A DNA stretch of 64,000 bases from an uncultured Chloroflexia bacterium (GCA_963814185.1 CAWFCF010000004.1:896358-960357); one strand, 5' to 3'; counted from the first letter of the stretch, positions 25,809 through 64,000 are shown. Numbers and translations are program-made. Notes: a model not told the origin generated them from the sequence alone.

Positions 25809-25863
25809 AGACCAAATTGGCGTTACTTGGTCTGCTGATGTTTGCATTAGGATAGATTGGTCT
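25809..25863. promoter_or_regulatory. candidate operator: AGACCAA-N11-TTGGTCT inverted repeat plus a third TTGGTCT half-site
   Basis: AGACCAA 25809-25815, TTGGTCT 25827-25833, TTGGTCT 25857-25863. The outer two sites are each preceded by TAGATT. They lie immediately upstream of or over the ABC exporter start. Confidence 0.35.
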
Positions 25864-27665: not shown

Positions 27666-27674
27666 GAGGGAAAC

Positions 27675-29545: not shown

Positions 29546-30764
29546 ATGACCACCACGATAGACGAATTTCGGCTCTCCCCGGTGATCGAGCTGGCGAACG
29601 CGGTCAGCCGCCCGTTCGAGCGCGTGATCAACCTGACGCCGGATGCGCTGCGGGCGGCGGCGGAGAAGCAAACCGGGCTGAGCGACTGGGGCAGCGATGA
29701 TTTTTGGCCCGGCTTCGAGGCGCTGTTCAACGCCACCGACGCCGACAACTCGCTAACGTTGGTCGGGCGCATAAGTATGCGAGTCGAGGGGCTGCACCGT
29801 CTCAAGAATCGGCTGCTGCTGGAGCAGGCGCTCAAGCGCGAGCCGGAAATTCTCAATAACCCGGTACGGCGACCGCTGTTTATCATCGGCTTTCCGCGCA
29901 CCGGAACCACGCTGCTGCACAAGCTGCTCACCCAAGACCCAGACGTTCACGTGCCGCTGCATTGGCGGCTGTACTCGCCGCTGCCGCAGAACGTGTCGCA
30001 GGCGGAGATCGACCGCCGAGTCAAGGAATCGGAGAGCCTGATGCGCTTCGCCGACTTCATCGCCCCCCAGTGGAAGGTCATCCATCCCACCGGCGCGCAC
30101 GAGCCGGAAGAATGTGTCTTTCTGCTCACCGATAACCTGACCTACGCGGTGCGCACCAACATCCCCGATTACGTGAATTTCTACCTTCACGAAGACCTGA
30201 ATCCCGGTCTACCGGAATTTCAAGCAGCATTTGCAGGCGCTTCAGTGGCAGCAGCCGGATCGCTCGTGGGTGCTGAAGTCACCGCTGCATCTGTGGTCGC
30301 TGAGCGCGCTGCTGACGGTGTTCCCGGACGCGCGGATCGTGCAGACCCACCGCGATCCGCAAAAAGCCTATGCCTCGTGGTGCAGCCTTGCGGCGGCGCT
30401 CGGCAAAATGGCGCGCAAGAACGTCGATCTGGAAGCCATCGCGCAGTACTGGCTGCCGCTGTGGAAGATCGGTTTTGAGCGGACGCAGGCGGCGCGCGCC
30501 GCCATCGATCCGAGCCAATGCTTCGACCTTCAGTACGTCGATCTGATGGCGGACCCGATGGCGGCGGTCAAGCGGGTTTACGCGCACTTCGGCGACGAAC
30601 TCTCGCCGGAAGCCGAAACCGCTATGACCCGCTGGCTGGCGGAACACGCGCACGGATCGCACGAGAGCCACCGCTACAACCTGAGCGAGTACGGCATCAC
30701 CGCCGAGCAGGTCGAGCGTGAATTGGGCGATTACGCCCACACCTATGCTATTCCGCGCGAATAA
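29546..30764 (+). pseudogene. sulfotransferase-family protein, frameshifted as sequenced
   Basis: PAPS-binding loop IGFPRTGTTLLHKLL. The frame switches at ...HEDLNP/VYRNFKQHLQALQWQQPDRSWVLKSPLHL, where there is an extra C in the CCC run 30203-30205. Length is 3n+1. Confidence 0.7.
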
Positions 30765-47131: not shown

Positions 47132-49325
47132 ATGGACGAACGACCGAGTAGGCTGCGTCCGTTCCTGAGTTACGGCTTGGCGCTGTTTATCACTGCCATC
47201 GCCTTTCTCCTGACGCTGCTGCTGCCCGGTATATTCGAGCCGAACCCGTTTCTCCTGTTTTTTGCGGCTGCCGCTCTGAGCGCGTGGTATGGCGGGTTGG
47301 GTCCGGGGCTGCTGGCGTCGATTCTGTCGCTGCTGCTGGTGAGGCTGCTGCTGGCACGCTCAAGCACTCCGCTGGTGGTCAGCGCGGATGATTTGGGGCG
47401 CATTGTGGCGCTTCTGGTGATCACCGGGGTGGTGAGCCTGCTGCATCGCCAATATCAGCGGACGCTGAAATCGCTCCGGCGCTCGCGGGATCAGCTCGAT
47501 ATTTACCTGCGGGACATGGCGAACGGGATCACGGTGCAGGATCGCAGCGGCAAGCTGATTTACGCGAACTACGAGGCGGCAAAGCTGATGGGATTCGCCT
47601 CAGCGGAAAGCCTGATCAATGCCTCTGGCGACGACCTGCTGGAGCGGTTCGAAATCTTCGACGAATTCGGAGAGCGGTTCCCGGCGAGCAGCCTGCCGGG
47701 GCGCTTGGCGCTGCTGGGGATGCACTACCCCGAAGCGATGCTGCGCTATCACTTCAAGGATACCGGAAGAGAGCAGTGGTCGTATACGAAGGCGCGACCG
47801 CTATTTGACGAGAAGGGGCAGGTGCAAGCCGCGATCAGCCTGTTTTTGGACATCACCGAGGTGAAGCAGGCGCAGCAGGCGCTCGCCGCTCAGCGTGAGC
47901 AGCTTCGGGTGACGCTGCGGAGCATCGGCGACGCGGTGATCGCCACCGATCTCGGAAGGCAAGATCACGTTCGTCAATCCGCTGGCGTCCACCATGACCG
48001 GCTGGGACGAAACCAGCGCCCTAGAGAAACCGATCACCGAGATCGTGCAGATCGTGCGGGAGCCGAGCCATCAAGTGCTGGCAGACCCGGTCATGCGGGT
48101 GCTGAACGACCGCACTCCGCTGCGCCTGACCGATCCGCTGCTGCTGGTGTCGCAGGATGGTCGAGAATACCCGATTGAAGTCACGGTGACGCCGATCCGC
48201 GACCAGCAGGATCGGTCGGTGGGAGCGGTGATGGTGTTCCGGGATATGACTCAGCGACAGCAGGCGGAAGCCAGCCTGCGCGCCCGCGTGAATCAGCAGG
48301 AAGTGGTGGCGCGGCTGGGGCTGCGAGCGCTGGAAGGCGGCGATCTGCAAAGCCTGATGCAGGAAGTCGCCGCGCAGCTTGCGGAAACCATCCGCACCGA
48401 ATACGTCGAGATTCTGGAACTGATGCCGGATGGCAAAACCCTGCTGCTGCGCGCCGGAGTCGGCTGGCACGCCGGACTGGTAGGGACTTCCACCGTCGAT
48501 GCGGGCGCGGATTCGCAGGGCGGCTTTACGCTGCTTGCCAACGAGCCGGTGATCGTCGAAGACCTGCGCACCGAAACCCGCTTCAATGGCTCATGGCTGC
48601 TCAAGCAGCATCAAGTCGTCAGCGGCATGAGCGTGGTGATCGGGGGGAAGGAGGGCGCGTGGGGCGCGCTGGGCGCGGATACGCAGCAGCGGCGCAGCTT
48701 CACGATGGACGACATTCATTTTCTGCAATCGCTGGCGAACCTGTTGGCGTCCGCCATCAGCCGCGAAGAGGTGGAGCGCGCGGAACGCGAACAGCGAGTC
48801 TTTGGCGAGGCGCTGCGGGATACCGCCGAGGCGCTGACGACCACGCTCGATCTGGGGCAGGTGCTCGACCGGATTTTGGAGAACGTCGGGCGAGTCGTGC
48901 CGCACGACGCCGCCGACATCATGCTGGTAGAGGGCGACAGCGCGCGGCTGGTTCGGTATCGCGGTTACGAAGATTATCGCCTGACCGAAAAGTTGGTCGA
49001 TCTCAAGCTGCCGCTGAATAACACCGCCACCCTGAAAGAAATGATCAGCACCGGAGCGCCGCTGCTGATCAACGAGACCCACGCCTATAATGGATGGGTC
49101 AAGCTGCCCGGCATGGAATGGCTGCGCGCCTATCTATCCGTCCCGCTGATCGTAGATGGACAGATCAAAGGCTTCCTCAACGTATCCAGCACCAGCCCCA
49201 ACTTCTTTACGCCGGAGCAGAAATTCCGGCTGGAGGCGTTCGCGGCACAGGCAACTCTCGCCATCCGCAGCGCTGAGCTTTACGCCGCCGCTCAGCGGAA
49301 CGGTCACGAGCCGCGCGCCTCCTGA
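47132..49325 (+). pseudogene. membrane-anchored PAS-PAS-GAF-GAF sensor protein without recognisable output domain, frameshifted as sequenced
   Basis: DUF4118-like TM N-terminus, then PAS-like (GITVQDRSGKLIYAN; IATDLEGKITFVNPLASTMTGW) and GAF-like regions. There is an extra G at 47953-47956 (DL/EGKITFVNP). Length is 3n+1. No H-box, GGDEF, EAL or HTH seen. Confidence 0.65.
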
Positions 49326-51622: not shown

Positions 51623-52411
51623 TTACGCAATCGCCCAGCGGCGGCGCGGGAAATCGAATATCCAGTTCGCGCGGCTGATTAGGTTGTAGCCGAGGATCAG
51701 GTCCATCGGCAGGTCGAGCGTGGCGTTCACGGCGCTGAGATCGACGGCGGCGACCCGATGGGGCGGAAAGGCGTGACCGCCGATGCGCGCTTCCGCCATG
51801 ACGTACAGGGGCGTTTCCATTACCGAGCCGCTGGAATCGGTGCCGGTCGAAGCGCCTGCTTCGGCGAAGGAATCCGGGTTCTGCTGGATTAGGCTCAAAT
51901 CCACGACCGTCAGGCTTGCGCCCGTGTCCCAGACGGCACGGACGGTCAGGCTGCCGATTTGAACGTCCACGTAGGGATGGAATTTCGGGTCAAGCAGCAG
52001 GTCTTGATCAGGATAATCGGCTTCGGCGTCCGCGTTCACCAATAGACGATTGCGATCAAATCGGAAATAGCAGCGGTGATCTTTGAGGAAGTCCATGCCG
52101 ATCAAACTGCCCACCGGGGAATCGGGTTGCGCCATGCGGACGATGGGGAAGTTCGGTTTGGCGATGGTTCCAAGCTCAAGGCTGGGGACGACGATCAGGT
52201 CTTCGCTGCTCTTGGCGAACACGCCGGACGAATCGTGTTTTTCACTGCTGGGGAAGGTCGCAGTGTACTGGTCGGCGACCACGCGGGAGCGGGCGGCGCC
52301 GGTATCCAGCAGAAAGCGATAGGCTCGGCTGCCGATGCGCCCATCCACGTAAATCTGCGCGGTCTCCGGCTCGTCGGCGTCCGGCGTGATGATCAGCGGG
52401 ATTTCGCTCAT
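51623..52411 (-). CDS. two-lobed retropepsin-like (clan AA) aspartic protease
   Basis: Two D-T-G-A catalytic motifs (FLLDTGAARS and AVWDTGASLT). Each is followed about 55-90 aa later by a hydrophobic-G motif (LIGMDFL, ILGYNLI). No signal peptide. Confidence 0.65.
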   Translation of the reverse strand: MSEIPLIITPDADEPETAQIYVDGRIGSRAYRFLLDTGAARSRVVADQYTATFPSSEKHDSSGVFAKSSEDLIVVPSLELGTIAKPNFPIVRMAQPDSPVGSLIGMDFLKDHRCYFRFDRNRLLVNADAEADYPDQDLLLDPKFHPYVDVQIGSLTVRAVWDTGASLTVVDLSLIQQNPDSFAEAGASTGTDSSGSVMETPLYVMAEARIGGHAFPPHRVAAVDLSAVNATLDLPMDLILGYNLISRANWIFDFPRRRWAIA

Positions 52412-52421
52412 GCTGCCTCAG

Positions 52422-52450
52422 CAAACAAAACGCCCGGCATAGACCGGGCG
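52422..52450 (-). terminator. rho-independent terminator following tRNA-Gly
   Basis: The minus strand reads CGCCCGG-tctatg-CCGGGCG-TTTTGTTTG. It ends 10 nt before the protease ATG. Confidence 0.65.
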
Positions 52451-52468: not shown

Positions 52469-52541
52469 AGCGGGTGAAGGGACTCGGACCCTCGACATTT
52501 TGCTTGGGAAGCAAACGCTCTACCAACTGAGCTACACCCGC
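52469..52541 (-). tRNA. tRNA-Gly (anticodon CCC)
   Basis: Hand-folded cloverleaf: acceptor GCGGGTG/CACCCGC, D-arm GCTC-AGTTGGTA-GAGC, anticodon arm TTTGC-TTCCCAA-GCAAA, variable loop ATGTC, T-arm GAGGG-TCCGAGT-CCCTT, discriminator U. No encoded CCA. The T-loop has C where U55 is expected. Confidence 0.85.
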
Positions 52542-52553
52542 AGCATGAGGATC

Positions 52554-52582
52554 ATTGTATGCGGCGGGCAGGAGGATGTCAA
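52554..52582 (-). promoter_or_regulatory. consensus sigma70-type promoter of tRNA-Gly (TTGACA-17 nt-TACAAT)
   Basis: Reverse complement reads TTGACAtcctcctgcccgccgcaTACAAT. The -10 ends 12 nt before tRNA position 1. Confidence 0.65.
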
Positions 52583-52617: not shown

Positions 52618-52626
52618 TGCTATAAT
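52618..52626 (+). promoter_or_regulatory. extended -10 element TGCTATAAT for the flippase-like/GT4/MT/GT-C operon
   Basis: TGCTATAAT lies 20 nt upstream of TTG 52647. GGAGG SD at 52634-52638. Confidence 0.45.
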
Positions 52627-52646
52627 CGCCAGCGGAGGTCTCAATC

Positions 52647-53660
52647 TTGAAAGCCGCAAGATATTGGCGTGCCGGATTGCTAGGGGTGGGTGCGAGCCTG
52701 TTGGCAATCTATTTTATTGCTTCGCAGATGCAGGATGTCGATCAGATGTGGTCGGCGCTGCGCCGCGCCGATTTCCGCTGGATTTTGATCAGCATGGGGA
52801 TCATCGTGATCGGGCTGTTCGCGCGCGGGGCGCGCTGGCGCGTACTCCTGGGCGGAGCGCTTCCATTTTGGCGTTCTTTCAGCATAACCAACGTGTCTTA
52901 CCTCGTGAATGGCGTCGTTCCGCTGCGGATAGGCGAAGTAGTGCGCGTGTATCTGGCGACGCAGGCGAAGCCGCCTGTCCCGGTCATGAAATCGGTTGGG
53001 ACGATTGTTTTGGAGCGGCTGATCGACGTGTTTTCGGTGCTGCTGATCCTGATTATTGCCTTATCTTCGGGACCGCTGCCTGACCAATTTCGTGCTTCTG
53101 CCTACTTCTTCGGCGCAGGTTTGATCATTGGCTGCGTGGTGAGCTTGGTGATGGTATTTCATCGAGAACAAAGTATTCGGCTTGCAGACAAGGTTGAACA
53201 AAAGCTTCCTTTGTTCAAGCGATTACACCTGAGTACATGGCTGGCGAATTTTCTCGATGGGCTGAAGTCTCTTACGGAAGTGAAGTCGATTGGACAGGCG
53301 TTAGGCTGGGCGGCGGCAAGCTGGGCATGTTCGCTGGCGAGCGGCTACGTGCTGATGATCGCCTTTTTCGGTCATGGGGAGTGGGCGACCACCTTCCTGT
53401 TCTCGGCGGCGGCGTCGCTGGCGGTGGCAGTTCCGGCGGTTCCCGGCAACCTCGGCACCTACGAGCTGTCGATTTTGCTGGCGCTGCGGGCGATGGGCTA
53501 CGGCGACCCGATGGCGACCGCGACCGCGTTCGCCATCGCGGTTCACGCGGTCAATCTGCTGGTGAACAGCACCTTGGGCGTGTATGGATTTATTCAGGAA
53601 GGCGTTTCGCTGGATCAGCTTTCGCAGGGCGTCCGCGAGATGAAAACACCACTGGGTTAG
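52647..53660 (+). CDS. UPF0104 / lysylphosphatidylglycerol-synthase-TM-region family protein (flippase-like domain)
   Basis: 337 aa with about 8 TM helices. Family motifs ARGARWRVLL, VPLRIGEVVRVYL and VPAVPGNLGTYE. Confidence 0.7.
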   Translation: MKAARYWRAGLLGVGASLLAIYFIASQMQDVDQMWSALRRADFRWILISMGIIVIGLFARGARWRVLLGGALPFWRSFSITNVSYLVNGVVPLRIGEVVRVYLATQAKPPVPVMKSVGTIVLERLIDVFSVLLILIIALSSGPLPDQFRASAYFFGAGLIIGCVVSLVMVFHREQSIRLADKVEQKLPLFKRLHLSTWLANFLDGLKSLTEVKSIGQALGWAAASWACSLASGYVLMIAFFGHGEWATTFLFSAAASLAVAVPAVPGNLGTYELSILLALRAMGYGDPMATATAFAIAVHAVNLLVNSTLGVYGFIQEGVSLDQLSQGVREMKTPLG

Positions 53661-53661
53661 C

Positions 53662-54839
53662 ATGTCCGGGCAAAAGCTGAAGATTTCTCATCTGTCTGCT
53701 GTACTACTTCCCGCACCGAACCGGGCTGACCATCCACGTGCAGCGGGTCGCGGAGGAACTGGTGCGGCGCGGTCACGAGGTCACGGTGCTGACGGCGCGC
53801 TACAGCAACGATCTGCCGCGCGACGAAACCACCATGCATCAGGGCGTGCGGATCGTGCGGCTGTGGGCGCCGATCCGGGTGAGCCGGGGCATGGTCATGC
53901 CCGCCTATCCATGGGCGCTGTACAAGCTGATGCGCGAGCATGACGTAGTGAGCGTGCATACGCCGACCCCGGAAACCGCGCTGATCGCCGCGATCTCCAA
54001 GCTGACTCAGCGCAACATCGTGGTCACACATCACGGCGACCTGATCCTGCCGGACGGATCTGACCAACCGGATGATTCAAGGCGGGATGTACGCCATGTA
54101 TACGGTGCTGGCGAAGCGCGCCAGCCACATCCTCGCCTACAGCCAAGATTATGCTGATCATTCGTATTATTTGCAGCCGTTTATGGATAAAGTCACGCCG
54201 GTCTACCCGCCGATCCAGATGCCGCCGCCGAATCCTCAGCGGGTGGTAGAGATGCGCGCCGAGTGGTCACAAGGCGATGGGACATCGCCCGATGCGCCGC
54301 TGATCGGGTTCGCCCACCGCTTCGTGGAAGAAAAACGCCCGGATTTGGCGATCCGCGCGCTGGAGGTGGTCACGCGCAAATACCCCAACGCTCGGCTGGT
54401 GTTCGCCGGGCAGTACAATATCCCTTACGAAAATACGTGGGAACGCCAGCAGGCGTTGGTCAACCAGTTCCGGGATCGGCTGACGTTTCTCGGCTTGATA
54501 CAAGATACGCAGGAACTCGCCAACTTTTACGCCGCCTGCGACGTGCAGGTGTTGTCCAGCGACACTGAATGCTTCGCGCTGGCGCAGGTCGAAGCCATGC
54601 TCTGCGGCACGCCGGTGGTAGCAACCGACATCCCCGGCGCGCGCGTCCCGGTGCGCGAAACCGGGATGGGCAAGCTGGCGCGCGCGGGCGACTGGCAGTC
54701 CATCGGCGAGGCGCTGGTCGAGGTGCTGGATCACCCGGAGCAGTATCGCAAGCCGCGCGAGCAAATTGAGCAGACATTTTCATTTCAAGAGACGGTTGAT
54801 TGCTATGAGCAGGAGTTCCGAACCTACGCCCGCCGTTGA
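53662..54839 (+). pseudogene. GT-B fold glycosyltransferase, family 4-like, disrupted by two +1 indels as sequenced
   Basis: MSGQKLKI / LICLLYYFPHRTGLTIHVQRVAEELVRRGHEVTVLT... / LTNRMIQGGMY...GFAHRFVEEKRPD...LVFAGQ...FYAACDVQVLSS..ECFALAQVEAMLCGTPVVATDIPG (E-x7-E-like motif). Extra bases lie in the TTT run 53684-53686 and near 54056-54060. Length is 3n+2. Confidence 0.75.
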
Positions 54840-55683
54840 TCCGCAGGTCATCACACACATGACCCGCAACGAGGCGGACATGGCGTTCAAGAAGCGGGTG
54901 CAGACCATCTTCGAGTGGATCGAGCCGAGCGACGACAAGCTGATCCTCGACATGCCCTGCGGGCGCGGCTTCTACCTCAACATGATCCGCTACGTGAGCC
55001 GCTGCAAACTGGCGGGCGCGGATTTGGACTGGGAGGTGATGCTCAAGGCGCAGCGGAACGTCGGCAGCTTGCCGGATATTACGCTGAGCAACGCCAGTAT
55101 CTACGCGCTGCCCTATGCAGAGAACTGCTTCGACGCGGTGATCCTCTCGGAAATCCTCGAACACATCGATGACGACGTTGCCGGGCTGAAAGAGGTCTAC
55201 CGGGTGCTGAAGCCGGGCGGCGTGGTGGCGATCACCGTGCCCAACGCGAATTATCCCTTCTGGTGGGACCCGATCAACAAGACGCTGGAAACTGCCTTCC
55301 ACCGCCACATTCAGCATGGAACCTTCGCGGGCATCTGGGCGAATCACGTGCGGCTGTACCGCCGCGATCAACTGCGCGAGGCGGTGCTGGCGGCTGGCTT
55401 TCTGCTGGAAGAAGAACGCGCCTTCACCCACGACAGCTTCCCGTTTATCCACAATCTGGTCTACGGGTTCGGCAAGCCGCTGCTGGAATCGGGCGCGCTG
55501 CCCAAGTCGATGGCGAACGCCGCCGACCGCACCACCTTCGACCAAAATGACGGGAGCTTGCTGAATCCGATAAATCTCGGTATCAACGTGTTGAATTGGT
55601 TCGACCGCAACAACCCGATCAACGAGCCTGTCGGTCGGTCGACGGTGAATCTGGCTGCGAAGGGGCGCAAACCGCAATCATGA
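54805..55683 (+). CDS. class I SAM-dependent methyltransferase with C-terminal extension
   Basis: Motif I ILDMPCGRGFY, post-I LAGADLD, motif II/III AVILSEILEHI...VLKPGGVVAITVP. The start is uncertain (TTG 54766, ATG 54805 or ATG 54859). Confidence 0.75.
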   Translation: MSRSSEPTPAVDPQVITHMTRNEADMAFKKRVQTIFEWIEPSDDKLILDMPCGRGFYLNMIRYVSRCKLAGADLDWEVMLKAQRNVGSLPDITLSNASIYALPYAENCFDAVILSEILEHIDDDVAGLKEVYRVLKPGGVVAITVPNANYPFWWDPINKTLETAFHRHIQHGTFAGIWANHVRLYRRDQLREAVLAAGFLLEEERAFTHDSFPFIHNLVYGFGKPLLESGALPKSMANAADRTTFDQNDGSLLNPINLGINVLNWFDRNNPINEPVGRSTVNLAAKGRKPQS

Positions 55684-58175
55684 GCGAGCAACCGCCGCAC
55701 GACATCCCTGCCGAACCGGAAGCGGAGCGCGACTTTGAAGACCTGACGCTCGAAGAAGCGGTCGGGCTGCTGTGGCGCAAGCCGTTCTCGACGTGGCGAG
55801 CGATTTCCGCGGTCGCGCGGACGCCCGCCTTCACCCAGAATCGTGCCGAGCCGCCCTCGGTGTTCGCCCCGCCTGTGCCCGCTTACGCGCCGCCGATGCT
55901 GCCGCCGAAGCCGCGCGTTCCGGCGTTCGTCAGCGAGCTGCCCGCCGCAGCGGTTCCCGCAACCCTCGAAGCCGCCGACGAGTTCCCAAGCTCGCGCTTG
56001 ATCGTGTTTGTGCAGTTGATCCTGCGGCTGGTCGCGCTCGGTCTGGCGATCTGGGGCGGGGTGATCATGTTCCAGTCGCCGATTCGCTCGGAGCAGACCG
56101 GGCTGGACATGGGCGCGCCTTATCTGCTGACCGGCTTCCTGCTCTGGCTGCTCAGCGAACTGCTGAAGCCGATCTTCGACCGCCGCCCGCGTCCCGCCCG
56201 AATCCCGCAGGCGCGGCGGCGCGAAGCCACCCTGATTTTGTCCACCGAGCGGCTGGCGGTGATCCTCGGCGGGCTGATCACCTCGGCGCTGGCGTGGATG
56301 CTCAACGGCGGCAACCTGTTCACGCTGCCGGGCGTGATCGTGTGGTTCGCCAGCATCCTGCTGTGGGTATGGGCGTTCGCGCCGCGCGGCTGGACTCCGT
56401 TGGTGGGGCTGCGAATCGGCTGGAACTGGCTGCGCCATCTGCGAATTCGGCTCAGTTGGACGCTGCTGGTGCTGCTGGCGATCATGGCGATTGGCACCTA
56501 CTTCCGGCTGACCGATCTGGACGGCACGCCGCCGGAGATGACCAGCGATCACGTCGAGAAGCTGCTGGACGTGAACCGGGTGCTGCACGGCGAGACCAAC
56601 GTCTTTTTCGCCAACAATCACGGGCGCGAGGCGATTCAGTTTTACGCGCTGGCGCTGATGTCGTATCTGCCGGGCGCGAGCCTCGACTTCCATCTGCTCA
56701 AGCTGCTGACCGTGATCGAGGGCTTGATCACGCTGCCGATCCTGTGGTGGATGGGCAAGGAGGTGATCGGCAAGGACGAGCCGCAACTCGGTAACGCGGT
56801 CGGCTTGACCCTAGCGGCGCTGGTGGCGGTGAGCTACTGGCACGAGATGCTCAGCCGACTAGGGCTGCGGATCGTGCTGACGCCGCTGTTCGCGGCGCTG
56901 GTGATCCTGTTTCTGGCGCGGGGCGTGCGCTACAACCGCCGCAGCGACTTCATTTATGCGGGGCTGGCGCTGGGCATCGGCGTATACGCCTATCAAGCGA
57001 TCCGAATGCTCCCGGTGGCGGTGCTGTTCGCGGTAGGGATCGCTTTCCTCTTTTGGATGCGCCGCGAGCGGGTTCACCTGCTGATGAATCTGGTGGTGCT
57101 GGTGCTGGTCTCGTTCGCGGTATTCGTGCCGCTGGCGCGCTACTCGGTCGAATACCCGGAGAGCTTCTGGAGCCGAACCTCCGGGCGGTTGTTCGGCGAC
57201 GCGATCACCGAGACCACCGACGAGAACGGCAATCTGATCCAGCGCACGCCGACGGTTCAGGAGCAGTTGACCGCCTTCAACAAGAACGTCCCGGTGCTGC
57301 TGGACAACTTCCGCAACGCGCTGCTGATGTACAACTGGAAAGGCGACGTGGCGTGGATCAACAACGCGCCCAACGATCCCGCCTTCGACCCGATAACTGG
57401 GGCGCTGCTGATCCTCGGCGTTGCGGCGTGGCTGGCGCGGATGCTGCGCCGCCGGGATGCCTTCGACTGGGCGCTGATCCCGCTGATCTTGATCATGATG
57501 CTGCCCTCGGCGCTCTCGATTGCCTATCCGATTGAAAATCCCAGTGCGACCCGCATGAGCGGCACGCTGCCCGGCGTGTATCTGCTGGCGGCGCTGCCGC
57601 TGGCGCTGATGGTGCTGGCGCTGCCCAAGCTGATCGGGCGGGTCGGCGCGTTTATCGCGCTGATCGGCGCAGCGGGCTTGGTCTTTTTCAGCTACAGCGC
57701 CAACTCCAAGACCTATTTTCAGGATTTCCGCTCGTCTTACATCGCCAACTCGCTGCCTTACAGCAGCGGCGGTCAAGTGCTGCGCGCGTTCGCTCAGCAG
57801 AACGGGTACGGGAACGCCTTCATTCTGGCGTATCCGTATTGGTGGGATCACCGCGCGCTCGCCATCGACGGCGGAGACATCGACTGGGCGAACACCATCC
57901 TGTCGCTGGACGACGTGCCCAGCTTCCTGCTCCAGTCCAGCCAGCGGAATGATAGTCTGCGGCTGGACATGACCAAAGACCTGCTGTTCTTCTATTCGCC
58001 GGACGATACGCAGGCGCAGCAGTGGCTGCTGACCACCTTCCCGCAGGGCTACTGGGAGAACGTGCCCACTTATCAGCCGGGGCACAGCTTCAACCTGTAC
58101 CACATCCCGGCGCTGGGCGTGGATGGATTCGTGTATTTCTTGCAGCAGCACGGGTTAGCCGCGCAGGGGCGGTGA
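55680..58175 (+). CDS. large polytopic membrane protein, GT-C/ArnT-like putative glycosyltransferase (paralogue D) with Pro-rich cytoplasmic N-terminus
   Basis: ORF 55596..58175 trimmed to ATG 55680 (ATGA overlap with the methyltransferase stop). More than 12 TM helices, a FRLTDLDGTPPEMTSDHVEK loop, and a C-terminal soluble domain. Confidence 0.55.
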   Translation: MSEQPPHDIPAEPEAERDFEDLTLEEAVGLLWRKPFSTWRAISAVARTPAFTQNRAEPPSVFAPPVPAYAPPMLPPKPRVPAFVSELPAAAVPATLEAADEFPSSRLIVFVQLILRLVALGLAIWGGVIMFQSPIRSEQTGLDMGAPYLLTGFLLWLLSELLKPIFDRRPRPARIPQARRREATLILSTERLAVILGGLITSALAWMLNGGNLFTLPGVIVWFASILLWVWAFAPRGWTPLVGLRIGWNWLRHLRIRLSWTLLVLLAIMAIGTYFRLTDLDGTPPEMTSDHVEKLLDVNRVLHGETNVFFANNHGREAIQFYALALMSYLPGASLDFHLLKLLTVIEGLITLPILWWMGKEVIGKDEPQLGNAVGLTLAALVAVSYWHEMLSRLGLRIVLTPLFAALVILFLARGVRYNRRSDFIYAGLALGIGVYAYQAIRMLPVAVLFAVGIAFLFWMRRERVHLLMNLVVLVLVSFAVFVPLARYSVEYPESFWSRTSGRLFGDAITETTDENGNLIQRTPTVQEQLTAFNKNVPVLLDNFRNALLMYNWKGDVAWINNAPNDPAFDPITGALLILGVAAWLARMLRRRDAFDWALIPLILIMMLPSALSIAYPIENPSATRMSGTLPGVYLLAALPLALMVLALPKLIGRVGAFIALIGAAGLVFFSYSANSKTYFQDFRSSYIANSLPYSSGGQVLRAFAQQNGYGNAFILAYPYWWDHRALAIDGGDIDWANTILSLDDVPSFLLQSSQRNDSLRLDMTKDLLFFYSPDDTQAQQWLLTTFPQGYWENVPTYQPGHSFNLYHIPALGVDGFVYFLQQHGLAAQGR

Positions 58176-58276
58176 GCGCCATCAGTTTTGAGGAAAATCG
58201 CTTGTTTCTCTGTACAATGACAACGGTCGCGCAGGACAGTAAGCTACGGCTGACGTGCCGCTAACAAAGGTTCCGT

Positions 58277-61200
58277 ATGCAAGAAGTTCAGCGCCTGCCT
58301 GAATTCGCCATCCCGGAGCGCCGCAGCGTCGTCCGAACCGACGCACTGGTCGGCGTTTTGCTGATACTGGTGATGGTGATCGGCGGGTATTTTCGGTTTA
58401 CCGGATTAAACTGGGACGATTTCACCCATCTGCACCCGGATGAGCGGTTTCTCACCGACGTGGCGCAGGGATTGGGTCGCCAGTTGAGTCCGAGCGGGGA
58501 CTCCAACGCTGCCGCCGCTCAAATGGCGGACTGTCTGGCGCGCTACCCAGACTCCGGCGGGATGGGTCCCTACTTCGATACCGAATGCTCGGCGCTGAAC
58601 CCGCTCAACGCGAATTCGGCGCATGGGCTGTACGTCTACGGGACGCTGCCGCTGTTCATCACCGAAGCCGCCGCCGATTTCACGGTGCAGGCGACCGAGT
58701 GGTATGCGCACAATATCCTCGCGCGCAGCAACCCGATTTACGCCACTTACGACGGCTCGCAGTGGGCGACCTACGACGGCATCCAACTGGTCTGGCGGTT
58801 CCTGTCCGCGCTCGCGGAAATGGGAATTATCCTGATCGTGTTCGTGATTGGCACCAAGCTGCACGACAAGTGGATCGGGCTGCTGGCGGCGTTCTTCTAC
58901 TCCGTCACCGTGTTTTCGATCCAGATGGCGCACTTCGGCACGGTGGACGCGATGGCGAACCTGTTCAGCGCGCTTTCGATTCTGTTTGCCGTGCTGGTGC
59001 AGCGCGAAGGCAAGCTGATCAATTACGCGCTGTTCGGCGTGTTCTTCGGCTGCGCGGTGGCGAGCCGGATCAATCTGGTGCCGCTGGCGGCGCTGATTGC
59101 AATCGCGGCGTTGATCCAGATCATGCCCGCGTTCGAGAGCCGCCTCGCGCCGGGCGAGCGCAGCCACGCGCTGATCTATCACGGCGGCGGGCTGCTGCTG
59201 GCGGCTTTTTTGTCGCTGCTCGCCTTCCGCATTTTCAACCCGTATGCCTTCAACGGGCCCGGCTTCTTCGGCTTGTCGCTGAACAGCCGCTGGCTCGACA
59301 ACATGAACTACGCGCAGGCGCTCAACGCGGGCATCGGCGACAGCCCGCCGAACTATCAATGGGTGGCGCGGCTGCCCTACATCTTCCCGCTGGACAACAT
59401 GGTGCTGTGGGGGATCGGCATCCCGCTGGGCATCATCGCGTGGCTGGGCTGGCTGTGGTCGGGCTATCGACTGGTGCGAGGTAAGCCCGGCGCGATCAAC
59501 AACGCGGTGCTGGTGGTGTGGGTGCTGATCTACTTCGGCTGGCTGGGGCGCAACTGGGTCACGACCATGCGCTACTTCCTGCCGCTCTATCCGGTGCTGA
59601 TGGTGCTGGCGGCGTGGGCGCTGGTGTCACTGGTGCGCTACGCGCGCGGGCACCTCTGGCGGCGGCGATTCTTCCGGGTGCTGCTCTACGGAACCGCCGT
59701 GATTGCGCTGCTGTGGTCAGCCATGTTCACCAACGTCTATCGCCACCTGCTGACGCGGGTACAGGCGACCTACTGGGTGTGGGAACACGTCCCCGGCGAC
59801 TTCGCCATGCAGATCAACAGCCCGGATGATCCGGCGCCCGTGATCAACATTGGGCTGCCCAACAACGGGATCGGCACGCGGCACGTTTACGACGACGCGC
59901 ACGCCGGGTCGGAGCATCAGTTCACCGCGCCAGTGACCGGCACCATCAGCGCGGTGTACATCGACTACATGGATGACCCCAACCACGACCTCGACCCGGA
60001 GATGATCTACTTCACCATCACGCGGGTGAGCGACAACCAGCAGATGGCGGACGCGGTTTACTCCGGCGATTTGACTCACGCGCAGAACGATCAACTGCCG
60101 CCCGCCTACACGATTCCGTTCACGCAGTTCGAGGTACAGCAGGGCGAGCTGTATCAACTGAACGTGCTGCTGATCAGCGGGGGACCGGTGGTGCTGGGCA
60201 GCTTCGTGATTCCGATTCAGCCGGACGCGCCCTCGCAGACGCCGCTGATCAACATCCCGCTGATGAACAACAACTACGGCGGGTCGGACGACGATCTGGT
60301 GTCGCGGGTGACGCGGCTGGACAGCACCTACAACAGCAGCGCGTCGGTCAGCTTCACCGCGCCCGCCAGCGGCACCGTGACCAGCATCTACGCGCCGCAT
60401 CTGGGCGACCCGAACGACGATCCGCAGCCGGAAGTGCTGCAATTCACCATCACCAAATCGGGCGACAGCACGCCGCTGGCGACGGCGACGCTCAATACCA
60501 ATCTGCCGCGCGACGAGAACAACATCCTCGGCACCAGCTACAACATCCCACTGGATGCGCCGCTGGAGGTGACACAGGGCGACCAGTACGATTTCAACGT
60601 GCAGTTGGTGTCCGGCGGCGCGGTGATCAGCGGCGGATCGGTGTTCACGTGGGAAGGGGCGTGGGACGACCCGGTTCCGACCGGAGTCTGCGCGCTGCCC
60701 ATCGGCACGACGCTGGAGGACGATCCGGCGCCGGGCATTTACATGGATCGACGGGACTGCAAGCAGTGGCTCGATCCGTGGTACGGGCTGGTCAACGGCT
60801 ACGAGCAGAACATCGTCTACGAGGATGAGCCGTCCAAGCGCGATCACCTGCTGCTGACGCTGGACAACAGCGACTACCTTGCCATCACCAGCAACCGCTT
60901 CTACGACCCAATGGCGCGCAACCCGATGCGCTGGCCCCTGACCAACTTCTACTACCAGCAGTTATTCGCCGGGAAGCTCGGCTACGATCTGGTCGCTACC
61001 TTTCAGGAGACCTTCCAACTGGGTCCGCTGAGAATCAGCGACCAGTATTTGCCGACTTACACGGGTCCCAAGTGGCTGAACGAACTGGAATCGGAAGAAG
61101 CGTTCAGCGTCTACGATCACCCGGTGGTGTTCATCTTCCAGAAGCGCGCGGATTACAGCGCCGAGCAGGTGCATCAACTGCTGGACAGCGTGCCGCTGAC

Positions 61201-64000
61201 CCGCGTGGGCAGCAGCGCGACCCTCAACATCTGCCCCGGCACGACTTCCGCCCTGTGCGACCCGACTATCGTCAACGTGGCGACCCTGAGTTCGGATCAA
61301 GCGGCGAAAGCGCCCACCGATTTGCAGTTCACGTCCGCAATGCAGCAGATTCAATCCAGCGGCGGCACGTGGTCGGATCGGTTCGACGAGACCAGCATCG
61401 TCAACACCAATCCGGTGGCGGCGGTGGTGATCTGGTGGCTGACCATCATGGTGTTCGGGTTCGCCGCCTTCCCGCTGCTGTTCGTGCTGCTGCCGGGCTT
61501 CGCCGACCGGGGCTACGCTTTCGCCAAATTCGCCGGGATGCTGCTGGCAGGATGGGGGACGTGGTATCTCGCCAGCCTGCGGATTCCGGTATGGTCGCAG
61601 GTAGGGATCGCCGGGGCGATGCTGCTCCTGTTCCTGATCGGACTGGCGCTGATGTGGCGCAGGCGCGACGCCTTCGTGGACTTTTTGCGCGAACACTGGA
61701 AGCGGCTGGCGCTGATCGAGCTGATCACGCTGATCGCCTTCCTCGCGTTCGTGGGCGTGCGGCTGACCAATCCCGACTTGTGGCAGCCGACCTTCGGCGG
61801 CGAAAAGCCGATGGACTTCGCCTATTTCAACGGCGTGCTGCGCAGCACCATCTTCCCGCCGATTGATCCTTGGTACTCCGGCGGCTACATCAATTACTAC
61901 TACTTCGGCTACGTGATCGTGGGGACGCCGGTGCTGCTGCTGAAGATGATCCCGTCGATTGCCTACAACCTGATCCTGCCGACCCTGTTCGCGCTGACCG
62001 GAATCTCGGCGTTTTCGGTGGCGTTCACGCTGGTCAATTCGCTGCGCGAGCGAGTTTCCTCCGACAGCGGCACGATTCGGCGAGTGAAGCGGCTGGGCAA
62101 TCCTTGGGTCGCGGGGATCGCGGCGCTGATGCTGGCGGTGGTGCTGGGCAATCTGGATACGCCGCACGTGTTTTTGAGCGGAGTCGCTAACGCGGGCGGC
62201 TACGCGCCGCCGCCGAGTATGCAGGATTATCTGATTCAGCAGTACAGCAGCGCGCATGACGGCAACGCCCCCGACGACGCGACGCTGCTCCAGATCGCCG
62301 CCGAAGCGCAGTCGCCGCCGCTGAGCGATCAGGTTCAGTACGAGATCAGCACCACCGGGGCGGCGCTCGGCAGCCTGCTGAACGGATTCTCCAAGATGCT
62401 CAGCGGTCAGGCTCTGTACGTCAGCCCGGATCGCTGGTTCTGGGGACCGACGCGGGTGCTGGCGGAACCTCCGGTCGATTCGGGCGGCGCGATTGCCGAA
62501 ATGCCGATCTTCACCTACGTCTACGGCGACATGCACGCCCACATGATCGCCATGCCGATGCAGCTTGCGGTGATGGGGCTGATCCTCAACGAAGTGCTGC
62601 TGGCGGGCAGCGATCTGCGGCGGCGGCGCACGGTGATCGCGGCGCTGGCGGTGCTGGGCATCTATGTGGGGATGCTGCGCGCGACCAACACGTGGGACTG
62701 GGTGACGTTCATGCTGCTGAGCGTGGTCGGGCTGGTCTTCGCGTGGTGGCTGGGGCTGGTGGCGCGCGACCCGGATCGGTCGTTCATGGCGCGGTTCACG
62801 CGGCGGTCGCTGATCGGGCTGACGTGGTACTTGGGCGGGTTCGCGCTGTTCAGCTTGATCGCGGCGCTGCCTTACAATATGTGGTTCGCATCGGCGTACA
62901 ACAGCGTCTCGCCGTGGACGGACGCCAAGACCCCGCTGTGGGCGTATTTCGACATTCACGGGCTGTTCCTGTTCTTGGTGGTCTCGCTGCTGGTGTGGGA
63001 TACGGCGCGCTGGCTGCGCAGCCTCTACGTGCGACAACTGCGGGGCACGTGGCTGCTGCTGATCAGCGGGCTGGTGATTCTGGCGGTGATTCTGCTCGGA
63101 TCGCTGATGCTGGCGGTGGCGAGCTATCAGGTGACGCTGGTGGTGCTGCCGCTGCTGATCTGGATCGCGCTGCTGTTCTTCCGCTCCGGGCAGTCGCGGG
63201 TGATGCAGTTCGTGCTGATTCTGACGGGGCTGGCGCTGGGCTTGACGCTGGGCGTCGAATACGTGGTGCTGGACGGCGACATCGGGCGGCAGAACACCGT
63301 GTTCAAGTTCTACATTCAGGCGTGGCTGCTGCTGAGCGTGGTTGGCGGGGCGGCGTTCGCGTGGCTGATCGCGCACGCCCCGCGCTGGCGACCGGGAATC
63401 CGCAGCGCGTGGATGTTCGTAGCGGTGGCGCTGATCGGGGTCGCGTCGCTGTTCCCGATCATGGCGATTCGCGGCAAGGCGGCGTTCCGGTTCGACCTGA
63501 ACACCTGCGCCCCGACCACGCTGGATGGCATGGATTACATGAAGTGCGCGATGGAATACGAGGGCGACGATCAACTGATGGCGCAAGACCCGACGCTGGC
63601 GCCGTTCCCGCTCTCGGAAGATTACGCCATGATCCGCTGGCTGCAAGATCACGTTCGCGGGACGCCGACCATCATCGAAGGCTTGAGCGAGCGCTCGCTG
63701 TACGTGTGGAACGACCGGATCGCCATCTACACCGGGCTGCCGACCGTGATCGGCTGGAACTTCCACCAGAAGCAGCAGCGCAGCCTCGACCCGTTCGGTC
63801 AGTTGGTGGATGACCGGATCGCCAACGTGAACGACTTCTACGACTCCACCAGCATCGACGATGCGTGGCGGATGCTGCAATACTATCACGTCACCTACGT
63901 GATCGTCGGGCGGCTGGAGCAGGCGTACTATCAGCAGGCGGGGCTGGCGAAATTCCCGGAGATGGCGCGCGAGGGCTTGCTGATCCCGGTGTTCCAGCAG
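58277..64000 (+). CDS. giant DUF2298 / 'Chlor_Arch_YYY' family membrane protein, two-module class, 3' end outside the window (more than 1908 aa)
   Basis: Not in the ORF track because it has no stop before 64000. No listed + strand ORF after 58277 shares its frame, consistent with frame 2 staying open from ATG 58277 to the window end. HPDERF loop motif at 58433-58450, GGEKPMDFAYFNG, and the eponymous GGYINYYYFGY (YYY codons 61895-61903). Dozens of TM helices. Confidence 0.75.
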   Translation, partial: MQEVQRLPEFAIPERRSVVRTDALVGVLLILVMVIGGYFRFTGLNWDDFTHLHPDERFLTDVAQGLGRQLSPSGDSNAAAAQMADCLARYPDSGGMGPYFDTECSALNPLNANSAHGLYVYGTLPLFITEAAADFTVQATEWYAHNILARSNPIYATYDGSQWATYDGIQLVWRFLSALAEMGIILIVFVIGTKLHDKWIGLLAAFFYSVTVFSIQMAHFGTVDAMANLFSALSILFAVLVQREGKLINYALFGVFFGCAVASRINLVPLAALIAIAALIQIMPAFESRLAPGERSHALIYHGGGLLLAAFLSLLAFRIFNPYAFNGPGFFGLSLNSRWLDNMNYAQALNAGIGDSPPNYQWVARLPYIFPLDNMVLWGIGIPLGIIAWLGWLWSGYRLVRGKPGAINNAVLVVWVLIYFGWLGRNWVTTMRYFLPLYPVLMVLAAWALVSLVRYARGHLWRRRFFRVLLYGTAVIALLWSAMFTNVYRHLLTRVQATYWVWEHVPGDFAMQINSPDDPAPVINIGLPNNGIGTRHVYDDAHAGSEHQFTAPVTGTISAVYIDYMDDPNHDLDPEMIYFTITRVSDNQQMADAVYSGDLTHAQNDQLPPAYTIPFTQFEVQQGELYQLNVLLISGGPVVLGSFVIPIQPDAPSQTPLINIPLMNNNYGGSDDDLVSRVTRLDSTYNSSASVSFTAPASGTVTSIYAPHLGDPNDDPQPEVLQFTITKSGDSTPLATATLNTNLPRDENNILGTSYNIPLDAPLEVTQGDQYDFNVQLVSGGAVISGGSVFTWEGAWDDPVPTGVCALPIGTTLEDDPAPGIYMDRRDCKQWLDPWYGLVNGYEQNIVYEDEPSKRDHLLLTLDNSDYLAITSNRFYDPMARNPMRWPLTNFYYQQLFAGKLGYDLVATFQETFQLGPLRISDQYLPTYTGPKWLNELESEEAFSVYDHPVVFIFQKRADYSAEQVHQLLDSVPLTRVGSSATLNICPGTTSALCDPTIVNVATLSSDQAAKAPTDLQFTSAMQQIQSSGGTWSDRFDETSIVNTNPVAAVVIWWLTIMVFGFAAFPLLFVLLPGFADRGYAFAKFAGMLLAGWGTWYLASLRIPVWSQVGIAGAMLLLFLIGLALMWRRRDAFVDFLREHWKRLALIELITLIAFLAFVGVRLTNPDLWQPTFGGEKPMDFAYFNGVLRSTIFPPIDPWYSGGYINYYYFGYVIVGTPVLLLKMIPSIAYNLILPTLFALTGISAFSVAFTLVNSLRERVSSDSGTIRRVKRLGNPWVAGIAALMLAVVLGNLDTPHVFLSGVANAGGYAPPPSMQDYLIQQYSSAHDGNAPDDATLLQIAAEAQSPPLSDQVQYEISTTGAALGSLLNGFSKMLSGQALYVSPDRWFWGPTRVLAEPPVDSGGAIAEMPIFTYVYGDMHAHMIAMPMQLAVMGLILNEVLLAGSDLRRRRTVIAALAVLGIYVGMLRATNTWDWVTFMLLSVVGLVFAWWLGLVARDPDRSFMARFTRRSLIGLTWYLGGFALFSLIAALPYNMWFASAYNSVSPWTDAKTPLWAYFDIHGLFLFLVVSLLVWDTARWLRSLYVRQLRGTWLLLISGLVILAVILLGSLMLAVASYQVTLVVLPLLIWIALLFFRSGQSRVMQFVLILTGLALGLTLGVEYVVLDGDIGRQNTVFKFYIQAWLLLSVVGGAAFAWLIAHAPRWRPGIRSAWMFVAVALIGVASLFPIMAIRGKAAFRFDLNTCAPTTLDGMDYMKCAMEYEGDDQLMAQDPTLAPFPLSEDYAMIRWLQDHVRGTPTIIEGLSERSLYVWNDRIAIYTGLPTVIGWNFHQKQQRSLDPFGQLVDDRIANVNDFYDSTSIDDAWRMLQYYHVTYVIVGRLEQAYYQQAGLAKFPEMAREGLLIPVFQQ
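59840..60650 (+). repeat. intragenic tandem duplication of a ~135-aa extracytoplasmic domain inside the YYY protein
   Basis: Copy 1 starts at 59840 (VINIGLPNNG...FTAPVTGTISAVY...DPEMIYFTITR...YTIPF...VQQGELYQLNVLLISGGPVV). Copy 2 starts at 60245 (LINIPLMNNN...FTAPASGTVTSIY...QPEVLQFTITK...YNIPL...VTQGDQYDFNVQLVSGGAVI). Confidence 0.7.

Follow-up and report, generated by a model that had tools for sequence, protein, structure and literature searches.

A conserved Anaerolineae gene cluster places the orphan YYY (DUF2298) membrane protein family beside GT-C glycosyltransferases and suggests a role in envelope glycan assembly

The polyprenyl-phosphate-sugar donors used by GT-C glycosyltransferases are made by GT2 enzymes. 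In the mycobacterial pathway to phosphatidylinositol mannosides, lipomannan and lipoarabinomannan (PIM/LM/LAM), the GT4 enzymes PimA/PimB act first, their product is flipped, and the GT-C enzymes PimE, MptA/B, EmbA-C and AftA-D follow. In the operons gpgSDF of P. aeruginosa and hexSDF of C. difficile a GT4 enzyme glycosylates a membrane lipid and a UPF0104 protein is the predicted flippase; gpgSDF consists of the GT4 synthase, a deacetylase and the UPF0104 predicted flippase, and its product is glucosaminyl (GlcN)-phosphatidylglycerol (PMC12713373). Chloroflexi have proteins in which a UPF0104 domain, under the name PplT, is joined to a GT-B domain (preprint 10.1101/2022.03.11.483950). The archaeal GT2 enzyme AglD carries a fused UPF0104 domain, and UPF0104 genes of Archaea neighbour those of AglD-like glycosyltransferases and PMT/STT3-like proteins (PMC5898192). 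Here we analyse a gene series in which members of these families stand next to the YYY (DUF2298/TIGR03662) family. It lies in a stretch of 64,000 nucleotides (nt) from an uncultured Chloroflexia bacterium (GCA_963814185.1 CAWFCF010000004.1:896358-960357; the window), begins at position 52647, and reaches the window end within the gene of a giant membrane protein that carries a YYY module.

With 6106 clusters in public data when grouped at 50% identity (E <= 1e-3), YYY is a large family, and annotation pipelines label the homologues either 'glycosyltransferase family 39' or 'DUF2298/YYY domain-containing'. Our literature search for a function of DUF2298/TIGR03662 returned incidental mentions only and no paper assigning a function. 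Literature matches to the term 'YYY domain' were set aside, as they refer to an unrelated regulator domain.

Five co-directional genes, all on the + strand, form the part of the series that lies inside the window, and open reading frames (ORFs) and Pfam matches place them where the first-pass annotation had put them. They encode a UPF0104 (LPG_synthase_TM) membrane protein of 337 amino acids (aa) (52647..53660), a GT4 (GT-B) glycosyltransferase that is interrupted in the assembly and has 391 aa after removal of two single-base insertions (53662..54839), a class I S-adenosylmethionine (SAM)-dependent methyltransferase (54805..55683, alternative start 54859), a PMT_2-like GT-C polytopic protein of 831 aa (55680..58175) and the giant membrane protein (58277..64000, 1908 codons inside the window). 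The junctions are as described before, i.e. a 1-nt gap at 53660/53662, an ATGA overlap at 55680-55683 and a 101-nt gap before 58277; the methyltransferase starts either at 54805, in a 35-nt overlap with the GT4 gene, or at 54859, behind a 19-nt gap. The full-length giant protein (P0001, 100% identical) has 1926 aa and its gene ends about 57 nt past the window, so only 18 codons lie beyond it.

The flippase-like identity of the first protein is supported by the TIGR00374 'flippase-like' domain (E 3.6e-19) and by PF03706 (E 5.3e-45); it is of the MprF-flippase-like, or PplT, kind. The MprF equivalog NF033480 gives 19.4 bits against a cutoff of 600, and whereas in MprF the flippase domain is fused to an aminoacyl-phosphatidylglycerol synthase domain, the 337-aa protein is the flippase-like domain only. 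The methyltransferase, with its gene end at 55683, was likewise correctly named (Methyltransf_11, E 1.3e-16).

The conservation of the series was investigated by scanning species-representative genomes with a YYY alignment, which gave 596 relatives, and by searching the best 80 of these loci for neighbours, using tblastn with the window proteins. All of the best 80 are Chloroflexota-like, and among them are Aggregatilineales, Phototrophicaceae, Anaerolineales including Bellilinea caldifistulae, Thermoflexia and Ardenticatenia. In the 55 loci with at least 6.2 kb ahead of the giant gene, the 831-aa GT-C is found upstream in 55, the GT4 in 54, UPF0104 in 44 and the methyltransferase in 38; where found, the methyltransferase orthologue lies between the GT4 and GT-C genes. 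The genes are co-directional and in the same order in all loci that have UPF0104, GT4 and GT-C (44/44), and 54 of 61 loci have a second DUF2298 gene downstream of the giant. Even in loci whose YYY module has fallen to about 35% identity, the genes stand in the order UPF0104–GT4–methyltransferase–GT-C–giant–second YYY. The recurrence of the same order in dozens of diverged genomes puts the arrangement far beyond chance, and the fact that it forms one conserved co-directional unit makes a shared pathway very likely.

The conserved unit is a cluster of about 10 genes and 21 kb found across the class Anaerolineae, and the window holds its 5' half. Gene calls and Pfam matches in four relatives, including the loci L082 and L083, show the UPF0104, GT4, methyltransferase, PMT_2-like GT-C and giant genes followed by a standalone DUF2298 protein (~840 aa), a ~618-aa protein with a weak PMT_2 match, an extracytoplasmic function (ECF) sigma factor, a zf-HC2 anti-sigma factor and a PMT/PMT_2–NHL protein (~1300 aa), after which come unrelated genes (NusA). 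This continuation occupies positions 15791-25190 in L001, 15269-24780 in L082 and 15435-25018 in L083 according to the gene calls, and the cluster of the window very probably continues past 64000 in the same way.

Gene fusions reinforce the functional link among the parts of the cluster. In another Anaerolineae lineage (L085, 10001-17305) the 831-aa GT-C appears to be fused to the giant, giving a protein of 2434 aa with PMT, PMT_2 and DUF2298 matches, and the UPF0104, GT4 and methyltransferase genes lie directly upstream of it. In L001 the second YYY protein is fused to the ~618-aa PMT_2-like protein (1467 aa). Moreover, PMT_2 and YYY are fused in essentially all homologues that are listed with Pfam domains. 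The PMT family proper (PF02366) was found only in the downstream PMT-NHL gene of the relatives and in the giant of L085; the window proteins have no PF02366 or MIR match and match only PMT_2 (35.9 and 24.6 bits). A further gene is inserted in the Bellilinea caldifistulae locus (L060, 1768-2793), where an NAD-dependent nucleoside diphosphate (NDP)-sugar epimerase/dehydratase stands between UPF0104 and GT4; several other Anaerolineales loci leave about 1 kb between these two genes. This enzyme could hint at the sugar that is used by the GT4.

A reduced arrangement is seen in three Chloroflexia-type (Roseiflexus-type) loci, where the gene of a 2600-2800-aa PMT_2–DUF2298–TPR protein precedes a standalone DUF2298 gene and where no UPF0104, GT4 or methyltransferase gene was found nearby. 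The function of YYY therefore does not strictly need these genes in cis, and the widely conserved core consists of a PMT_2-type GT-C, a YYY module and a second YYY gene. In other words, the linkage of DUF2298 with UPF0104, GT4 and methyltransferase genes that was expected from the first-pass annotation is present in Anaerolineae and absent from the three Chloroflexia-type loci, and the UPF0104–GT4–methyltransferase–GT-C block is an Anaerolineae feature.

Two side observations belong to this survey. Five contigs labelled as Methanosarcinales archaeon, Bacteroidetes, Pleurocapsa or Acidobacteriota (L078, L022, L006, L024 and L048) carry an Anaerolineae-type giant gene, and in the four with flanks present (L078, L022, L006 and L024) the cluster is in the usual order; they are probably mis-binned Chloroflexota. 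At one locus (L084, 24690-25625, - strand) a gene of the PIG-L/LmbE family (GlcNAc-lipid/inositol de-N-acetylase type) lies a few kb from a Roseiflexus-type YYY pair.

The giant protein had been described as a membrane protein of more than 1900 aa with an HPDERF and a YYYFGY motif, and as a double YYY protein. Its size and both motifs are confirmed, and the doubling is not, as TIGR03662 and PF10060 each match once, within aa 1048-1916. We considered the N-terminal module as a second YYY copy and rejected this, since it matches PMT_2 and since its hhalign comparison with the YYY-module profile gives a probability of 1%. In order from the N-terminus, the giant has a GT-C module of the PMT_2 type, a pair of beta-sandwich repeats, an alpha/beta domain and a single YYY/DUF2298 module. 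AlphaFold2 models built from a 94-sequence alignment have a predicted local distance difference test (pLDDT) of 88.1 for aa 1-1075 and of 91.3 for aa 1060-1908, the latter with a predicted TM score (pTM) of 0.92.

The N-terminal transmembrane module (aa 1-508, 58277..59800) matches PMT_2 with E 1e-8 (35.9 bits) and is modelled at pLDDT 88. Foldseek comparison of its model with the Protein Data Bank gave 48 matches with E<1e-3, nearly all of them GT-C proteins; the leaders are AglB (6e-8), Pmt4 (5e-7), EmbC, STT3, ALG9, PglB and ArnT (8e-5), and EmbA, EmbB and ALG12 are also among the matches. Pmt4 is ranked fourth and has the best target-normalised TM score, 0.56. The remainder, i.e. the matches of the N-terminal model that are not GT-C, are beta-sandwich proteins aligning to the repeats. 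The HPDERF motif (aa 53-58, including D55/E56; 58433..58450) opens the first extracytoplasmic helix, which in the model spans residues 54-65 directly after transmembrane helix 1 (15-41), and W46, D47, H53, P54, D55, E56 and R57 are invariant in the 94 giant homologues. The GT-C-like fold and the acidic first loop that had been suggested for this module were thus both found, the former in the predicted structure and the latter in the homologues. At the sequence level, neither phmmer with the N-module nor the profile of the whole giant family matched any solved structure.

Between the two membrane modules lie two all-beta repeats, at aa 549-644 (59921..60208) and aa 693-789 (60353..60643), which are recognisably alike (local BLOSUM62 score 202) and whose number, from about 1 to 4 copies, is what chiefly varies among the homologues. 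They are followed by an extracytoplasmic domain of mixed alpha/beta structure in the model (aa ~800-1040, 60674..61396), with the motifs SNRFYD and WLNExExEEAFxVYDHP and the invariant columns N873, R874, Y876, E936, E938, E941, D947, H948 and P949. Pfam gave no match on the beta-sandwich repeats, the alpha/beta domain or the C-terminal domain of the YYY module.

The single YYY module (aa 1048-1908 and beyond, 61418..64000) comprises about 15 transmembrane helices and a C-terminal outside domain. TIGR03662 matches it in one stretch, profile positions 3-726 of 727, with 487.5 bits against a cutoff of 300.25, and PF10060 with 341.9 bits against 27.8 (E 9e-102). The C-terminal 870 aa of the giant are hence like other DUF2298/TIGR03662 proteins in being a full-length member above both curated cutoffs, in having YYYxG and in being very hydrophobic; they are unlike the Roseiflexus-type proteins, in which two copies are combined with TPR, in being one copy, and this copy sits behind a PMT_2-type GT-C, beta-sandwich repeats and an alpha/beta domain.

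The invariant residues of the YYY module fall into a few motifs; they are given here (G115 to N614) in a numbering that differs from that of the giant, as used for e.g. aa 1207-1212. GGEKPMD (61796..61816) opens an extracytoplasmic helix and is invariant at G115, G116, E117, K118, P119, M120 and D121. In the YYYFGY signature (aa 1207-1212, 61895..61912) and the residue before it, N147, Y148, Y149, Y150 and G152 are invariant in the 94 sequences. The acid and histidine cluster AIAEMP...GDMHAHM (62489..62545) has the invariant residues I347, E349, P351, D359, H361 and H363, and the outside-facing DIGRQN motif (63278..63295) has D609, R612, Q613 and N614. The YYY model obeys the positive-inside rule, with K+R at 26.6% in the inside loops vs 4.3% in the outside loops. 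In the topology derived from this model, all of the invariant polar motifs (GGEKPMD, DPW, NYYY, GNLD, AIxE, GDxHAH, NTWDW and DIGRQN) face outward, which gives the YYY module the look of an enzyme whose active site is extracytoplasmic. Its only credible Foldseek matches are AglB (E 1.6e-3 and 2.6e-3, probability 1.0) and ArnT (E 0.039, probability 0.98), and it is plausibly a very divergent GT-C. Structure prediction, which had been proposed as a check on both modules, accordingly supports the GT-C fold for the N-module and gives a weakly GT-C-like picture for the YYY module, with TM scores of 0.29-0.42. Pfam searched at E up to 10 finds DUF2298 only on this module, and phmmer with the module found no match among solved structures.

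The 831-aa protein had been named GT-C-like and polytopic. It is polytopic, and the GT-C assignment holds on weak evidence, the PMT_2 score being 24.6 bits with a gathering score of 26.1. Of 17 orthologues, 15 match PMT_2, mostly weakly, and that of Bellilinea exceeds the gathering score (E 3.6e-10). Comparison of the 831-aa family with the N-module of the giant by hhalign gives a probability of 96% (E 4e-9, 229 columns), and judged by these profiles the two are paralogues. After its core transmembrane helix 1 the protein has a loop motif E-M-T-S-D-H-V-E (aa 286-293, 56535..56558), of which E286, M287, T288, D290, H291, V292 and E293 are invariant in the 17 orthologues. A profile search of solved structures with the 831-aa family gave no match.

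With this inventory the locus can be compared with the systems described at the outset. It is like gpgSDF and hexSDF in that a GT4 gene adjoins a UPF0104 gene in one operon. It differs in that the repaired GT4 is no orthologue of the GlcNAc-phosphatidylglycerol synthase (model NF053787, 49.6 bits against a cutoff of 480), in having a methyltransferase instead of a deacetylase, in that the flippase gene comes first, and in that the pair is embedded in a cluster of four GT-C and two YYY modules, which gpgSDF does not have. The N-module and the 831-aa protein resemble the known GT-C types (PMT_2/ArnT, PMT, STT3/AglB/PglB and Emb/Aft) in being polytopic with a GT-C fold or profile, in their invariant acidic first outside loop and in their C-terminal outside domain; they are unlike them in lacking a sequence-level match to a solved GT-C, in PMT_2 scores near or below the threshold and in the fused YYY module.

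The order of events, i.e. cytoplasmic glycosyltransferase, flippase and then outside GT-C, is that of three-component systems such as Gtr and ArnC/ArnEF/ArnT (PMC11127046). The window differs from them in having no GT2 and no GtrA/SMR-type flippase, and in their place a GT4, a UPF0104 protein and several GT-C/YYY enzymes. The archaeal AglD neighbourhoods, in which arCOG00563 is the PMT/STT3-like member, share with the window a predicted UPF0104 flippase linked to a cytoplasmic glycosyltransferase and a distant PMT/STT3-like protein, and differ in that the enzyme is a GT2 there and a GT4 here and in that the description includes no YYY module or methyltransferase (PMC5898192). As for mycobacterial PIM/LM/LAM synthesis, in both cases a GT4 glycolipid anchor would be formed inside and extended outside by large GT-C enzymes, some with carbohydrate-binding outside domains, and EmbC and EmbB are among the structural matches of the N-module. 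This likeness is functional; the phylum and the envelope are different and the mycobacterial pathway has no YYY-type module.

The function that we think probable, though with considerable reserve, is that the cluster assembles an envelope glycoconjugate, i.e. a lipoglycan, a wall or sheath polysaccharide or a surface-protein glycan, with the work split across the cytoplasmic membrane. The GT4 would move a sugar from a nucleotide sugar onto a membrane-lipid acceptor at the cytoplasmic face, and the SAM methyltransferase may modify the product. The UPF0104/PplT protein, in a role like that of MprF and like the flippase role predicted for GpgF and for the C-terminal domain of AglD, would then carry the lipid-linked product to the outer leaflet. 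There the PMT_2-type GT-Cs, the 831-aa protein and the N-module of the giant, would add sugars from polyprenyl-phosphate donors made elsewhere in the genome; the fold behind this step is that modelled for the N-module, and its chemistry is presumed. The YYY module, which in nearly all cases is fused to a PMT_2-type GT-C or lies next to one, may be the partner transferase, polymerase or ligase on the same substrate, and the beta-sandwich repeats and the alpha/beta domain may hold the glycan or the acceptor. We favour the GT4 product as an anchor or acceptor glycolipid, comparable to those of PimA, GpgS and HexS, rather than as a polyprenyl-phosphate donor, because the known donors of the latter type come from GT2 enzymes and because the GT4 of gpgSDF/hexSDF glycosylates a membrane lipid. 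The suggestion of a glycosylation context for the YYY family is upheld in this reading by the conserved cluster and by the GT-C fusion or adjacency.

Several findings weigh against this reading, and those that concern the integrity of the GT4 gene follow further below. No GT2 polyprenyl-phosphate glycosyltransferase was found in the cluster, the window, L001, L060, L082, L083 or L085, and no priming phosphoglycosyltransferase in the cluster, the window or four relatives, so the supply of donors is assumed. The earlier claim of a complete route within the window fails for the same reason, and also because five more conserved genes lie beyond 64000 in the relatives. The methyltransferase is found in only 38 of 55 loci at the threshold used, and no specific NCBIfam equivalog was found for it. 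The three Chloroflexia-type loci, as described, have none of the UPF0104, GT4 and methyltransferase genes nearby. Finally, the likeness of the YYY module to GT-C proteins is weak. Its Foldseek matches other than AglB and ArnT have probabilities <0.25, TM scores are as low as given above, and at the sequence level hhalign of the whole modules and of the transmembrane-plus-first-loop regions returned noise.

The same linkage data would also fit another division of labour, in which the GT4 and the methyltransferase make a lipid-carrier sugar donor that UPF0104 flips and that the GT-C and YYY enzymes use, the GT4 replacing a GT2 and UPF0104 replacing GtrA or ArnE/F. A donor made by the GT4 was part of the first-pass annotation as well, and it fits known chemistry poorly: polyprenyl-phosphate-monosaccharide donors come from inverting GT-A enzymes of family GT2 such as DPM1, ArnC, GtrB and AglD, whereas GT4 enzymes are retaining GT-B enzymes that act on phosphatidylinositol, phosphatidylglycerol, diacylglycerol, inositol phosphate or lipid-linked oligosaccharides. 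The repaired GT4 is most like BshA, MshA and the GlcNAc-phosphatidylglycerol synthase, all of these being the closest NCBIfam models and all far below their cutoffs, and the experimentally supported pairing of GT4 with UPF0104 yields a glycosylated membrane lipid and not a donor (PMC12713373). We therefore regard such a route as unlikely, even though the GT4 is the only donor-making candidate encoded in cis, three-component systems are a common design (PMC11127046), and archaeal AglD couples a dolichyl-phosphate (Dol-P)-sugar synthase domain to UPF0104 and has PMT/STT3-like proteins as neighbours (PMC5898192). Another candidate, to which we would give little credence, is protein O-glycosylation. 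Here the PMT_2/PMT GT-Cs, including the PMT-NHL protein, would modify secreted, S-layer or sheath proteins, the beta-sandwich and NHL parts would bind protein, and GT4, methyltransferase and UPF0104 would supply or modify a lipid-linked glycan. The label 'glycosyltransferase family 39 protein' on homologues points this way, as do the PF02366 matches of the last cluster gene and of the L085 giant; yet the window proteins have no MIR domain or other PMT hallmark, and ArnT-like transferases that act on lipids and glycans belong to PMT_2 as well. Structurally, Pmt4 is fourth in Foldseek with the best target-normalised TM score (0.56), the oligosaccharyltransferase AglB is the top match of both modules, and the invariant D-E pair in loop 1 of the N-module resembles the PMT 'DE' motif, but Foldseek does not separate the acceptor classes of GT-C enzymes. 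Moreover, four GT-C and two YYY modules look more like a polymer assembly line, and no candidate substrate protein is encoded in the cluster.

The remaining rival concerns the GT4 gene itself. It was presented as a simple GT4-type gene; the family assignment stands (Glyco_transf_4 and Glycos_transf_1 matches) and the single ORF does not, as the first 7 codons, the Glyco_transf_4 half and the Glycos_transf_1 half are in three successive frames. At the first site (53684..53686) a TTT run has one extra base in comparison with the L001 DNA, and TT restores 'MSGQKLKILICLLYYFP'; at the second (54050..54062), where the frame changes from 2 to 0 between 'LILPDG' and 'LTNRMIQ', the DNA alignment with L001 places one extra base somewhere in CCGGACGGATCTG. 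Removal of the two insertions gives the 391-aa protein without stops. The GT4 orthologue of L001 (5333-6520) also has two single-base insertions, at other places, which does not favour our reading, and neither does the clustering of the shifts, since 2 in 1.2 kb is above the window-wide rate (Poisson P ~0.007 for the window alone). If the frameshifts were real, the first step of the pathway would be missing in this organism. The gene could then be a genuine pseudogene that decays independently in the organisms of the window and of L001, with the cytoplasmic step lost or provided in trans and the operon partly defunct. For such a decay speak the two shifts in 1.2 kb against none in the other ~10 kb of the operon, a shift density above the window-wide level of about one split gene per 10 kb, and the two differently placed shifts in L001, whose nine other called cluster genes are complete. 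Programmed frameshifting was considered separately and rejected, because the window and L001 are shifted at different sites and 54 of 58 orthologues are read through without any shift.

Nevertheless, we consider a pseudogene improbable. Removing four single bases, two in the window and two in L001, restores full-length GT4 ORFs without stops, and the dN/dS of the gene in comparison with L001 is 0.21, similar to its cluster neighbours (0.12-0.30). In 54 of 58 related loci the GT4 is matched in one piece, and the broken copies, those of the window, L001 (same contig as L002) and L064, are all from 'contig_'-named metagenome-assembled genomes (MAGs), L064 having shifts in its UPF0104 and GT-C genes too. 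The change at the first site is one of homopolymer length (TT to TTT). Furthermore, at least four unrelated genes of the window are split between two frames, at about 1 frameshift per 10 kb: a penicillin amidase (39490-42046, - strand, break near 40710, with Pfam positions 1-316 and 319-675 on separate ORFs), an Opp-type ABC ATPase (7778-9848, - strand, break near 8440), a sulfotransferase (29546-30764, + strand, break near 30215) and a PAS/GAF sensor kinase (47132-49325, + strand, break near 47950), which is one 751-aa gene in L001. These split genes suggest residual indel errors in the assembly, and less likely a genome rich in pseudogenes. Because of the other split genes, the intact state in 54 of 58 loci and the dN/dS of 0.21, the frameshifts of the GT4 are likely assembly errors, and the pathway is therefore probably intact in the organism.

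The start of the cluster is marked by an extended -10-like element, TGCTATAAT, at 52618..52626 on the + strand, which the first-pass annotation had placed ahead of the five genes and which is present there. It is followed by GGAGG (52633-52637) and the TTG start of the UPF0104 gene at 52647. In the two closest relatives, L001 and L064, TGnTATAAT, GGAGG and the TTG start are kept and the rest of the spacer has diverged. A sigma-70 consensus scan did not call the TGCTATAAT site, because it found no -35 match; the conservation in relatives is the best available evidence that this putative promoter is real. On the opposite strand lies a divergent tRNA-Gly(CCC) (52469-52541), with a promoter that agrees with the sigma-70 consensus at 11 of 12 positions (TTGACA-17-TACAAT, 52582..52554) and a terminator consisting of a hairpin and a T-run (52450..52431); the same tRNA sequence is also upstream of the cluster in L001. 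Since this tRNA gene has its own promoter and terminator just upstream, the cluster begins at UPF0104. Beyond the tRNA, toward an amino-acid permease gene, the window encodes a 262-aa protein with two retropepsin-like aspartyl protease domains (Asp_protease_2 twice; 51623-52411, - strand), which is missing at the equivalent position of L001.

Further PMT_2-type genes occur elsewhere in the window. Two additional PMT_2-type GT-C genes and a trio of PMT_2, ABC exporter and ABC exporter are found at 21531-22922 (- strand), 23986-25575 (+ strand) and 25857-29501 (+ strand). In L082 a homologous trio (48%, 64% and 45% identity) is located divergently and directly upstream of the cluster, so that the two may be linked in function, e.g. 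if the trio exports a product or a substrate.

The individual families are known, and so is the design in which a cytoplasmic glycosyltransferase is followed by a flippase and a GT-C. Within the literature searched, novelty appears to lie in the conserved cluster itself, with its roughly 10 genes, in the regular association of YYY with PMT_2-type GT-Cs, and in the evidence, drawn from structural and topological models, for YYY as a putative outward-facing AglB/ArnT-like enzyme. A bolder proposal, which we offer tentatively and consider doubtful at present, is that YYY/DUF2298 is an unrecognised and very divergent GT-C-like branch, nearest to AglB/STT3 and ArnT, that has a PMT_2 GT-C as its obligate partner, fused to it or encoded beside it and mostly accompanied by another YYY gene, and that with this partner builds a Chloroflexota-specific envelope polymer, in Anaerolineae on a GT4-made, methylated and UPF0104-flipped glycolipid primer. 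If so, this would be a lipoglycan pathway similar to that of mycobacterial LM/LAM but independently evolved and carried out by fused two-enzyme 'megasynthases'.

If the reading of the cluster as an envelope glycoconjugate pathway is true, the GT4-plus-UPF0104 module that makes a glycolipid and flips it would extend past gpgSDF and hexSDF. The cluster is carried by a cultured species, Bellilinea caldifistulae, and specific residues and genes can be named as targets for mutation. For the Anaerolineae, a filamentous, environmentally abundant and poorly understood group of bacteria, and for the large orphan DUF2298/YYY family, these results provide a testable hypothesis of envelope-glycan assembly.

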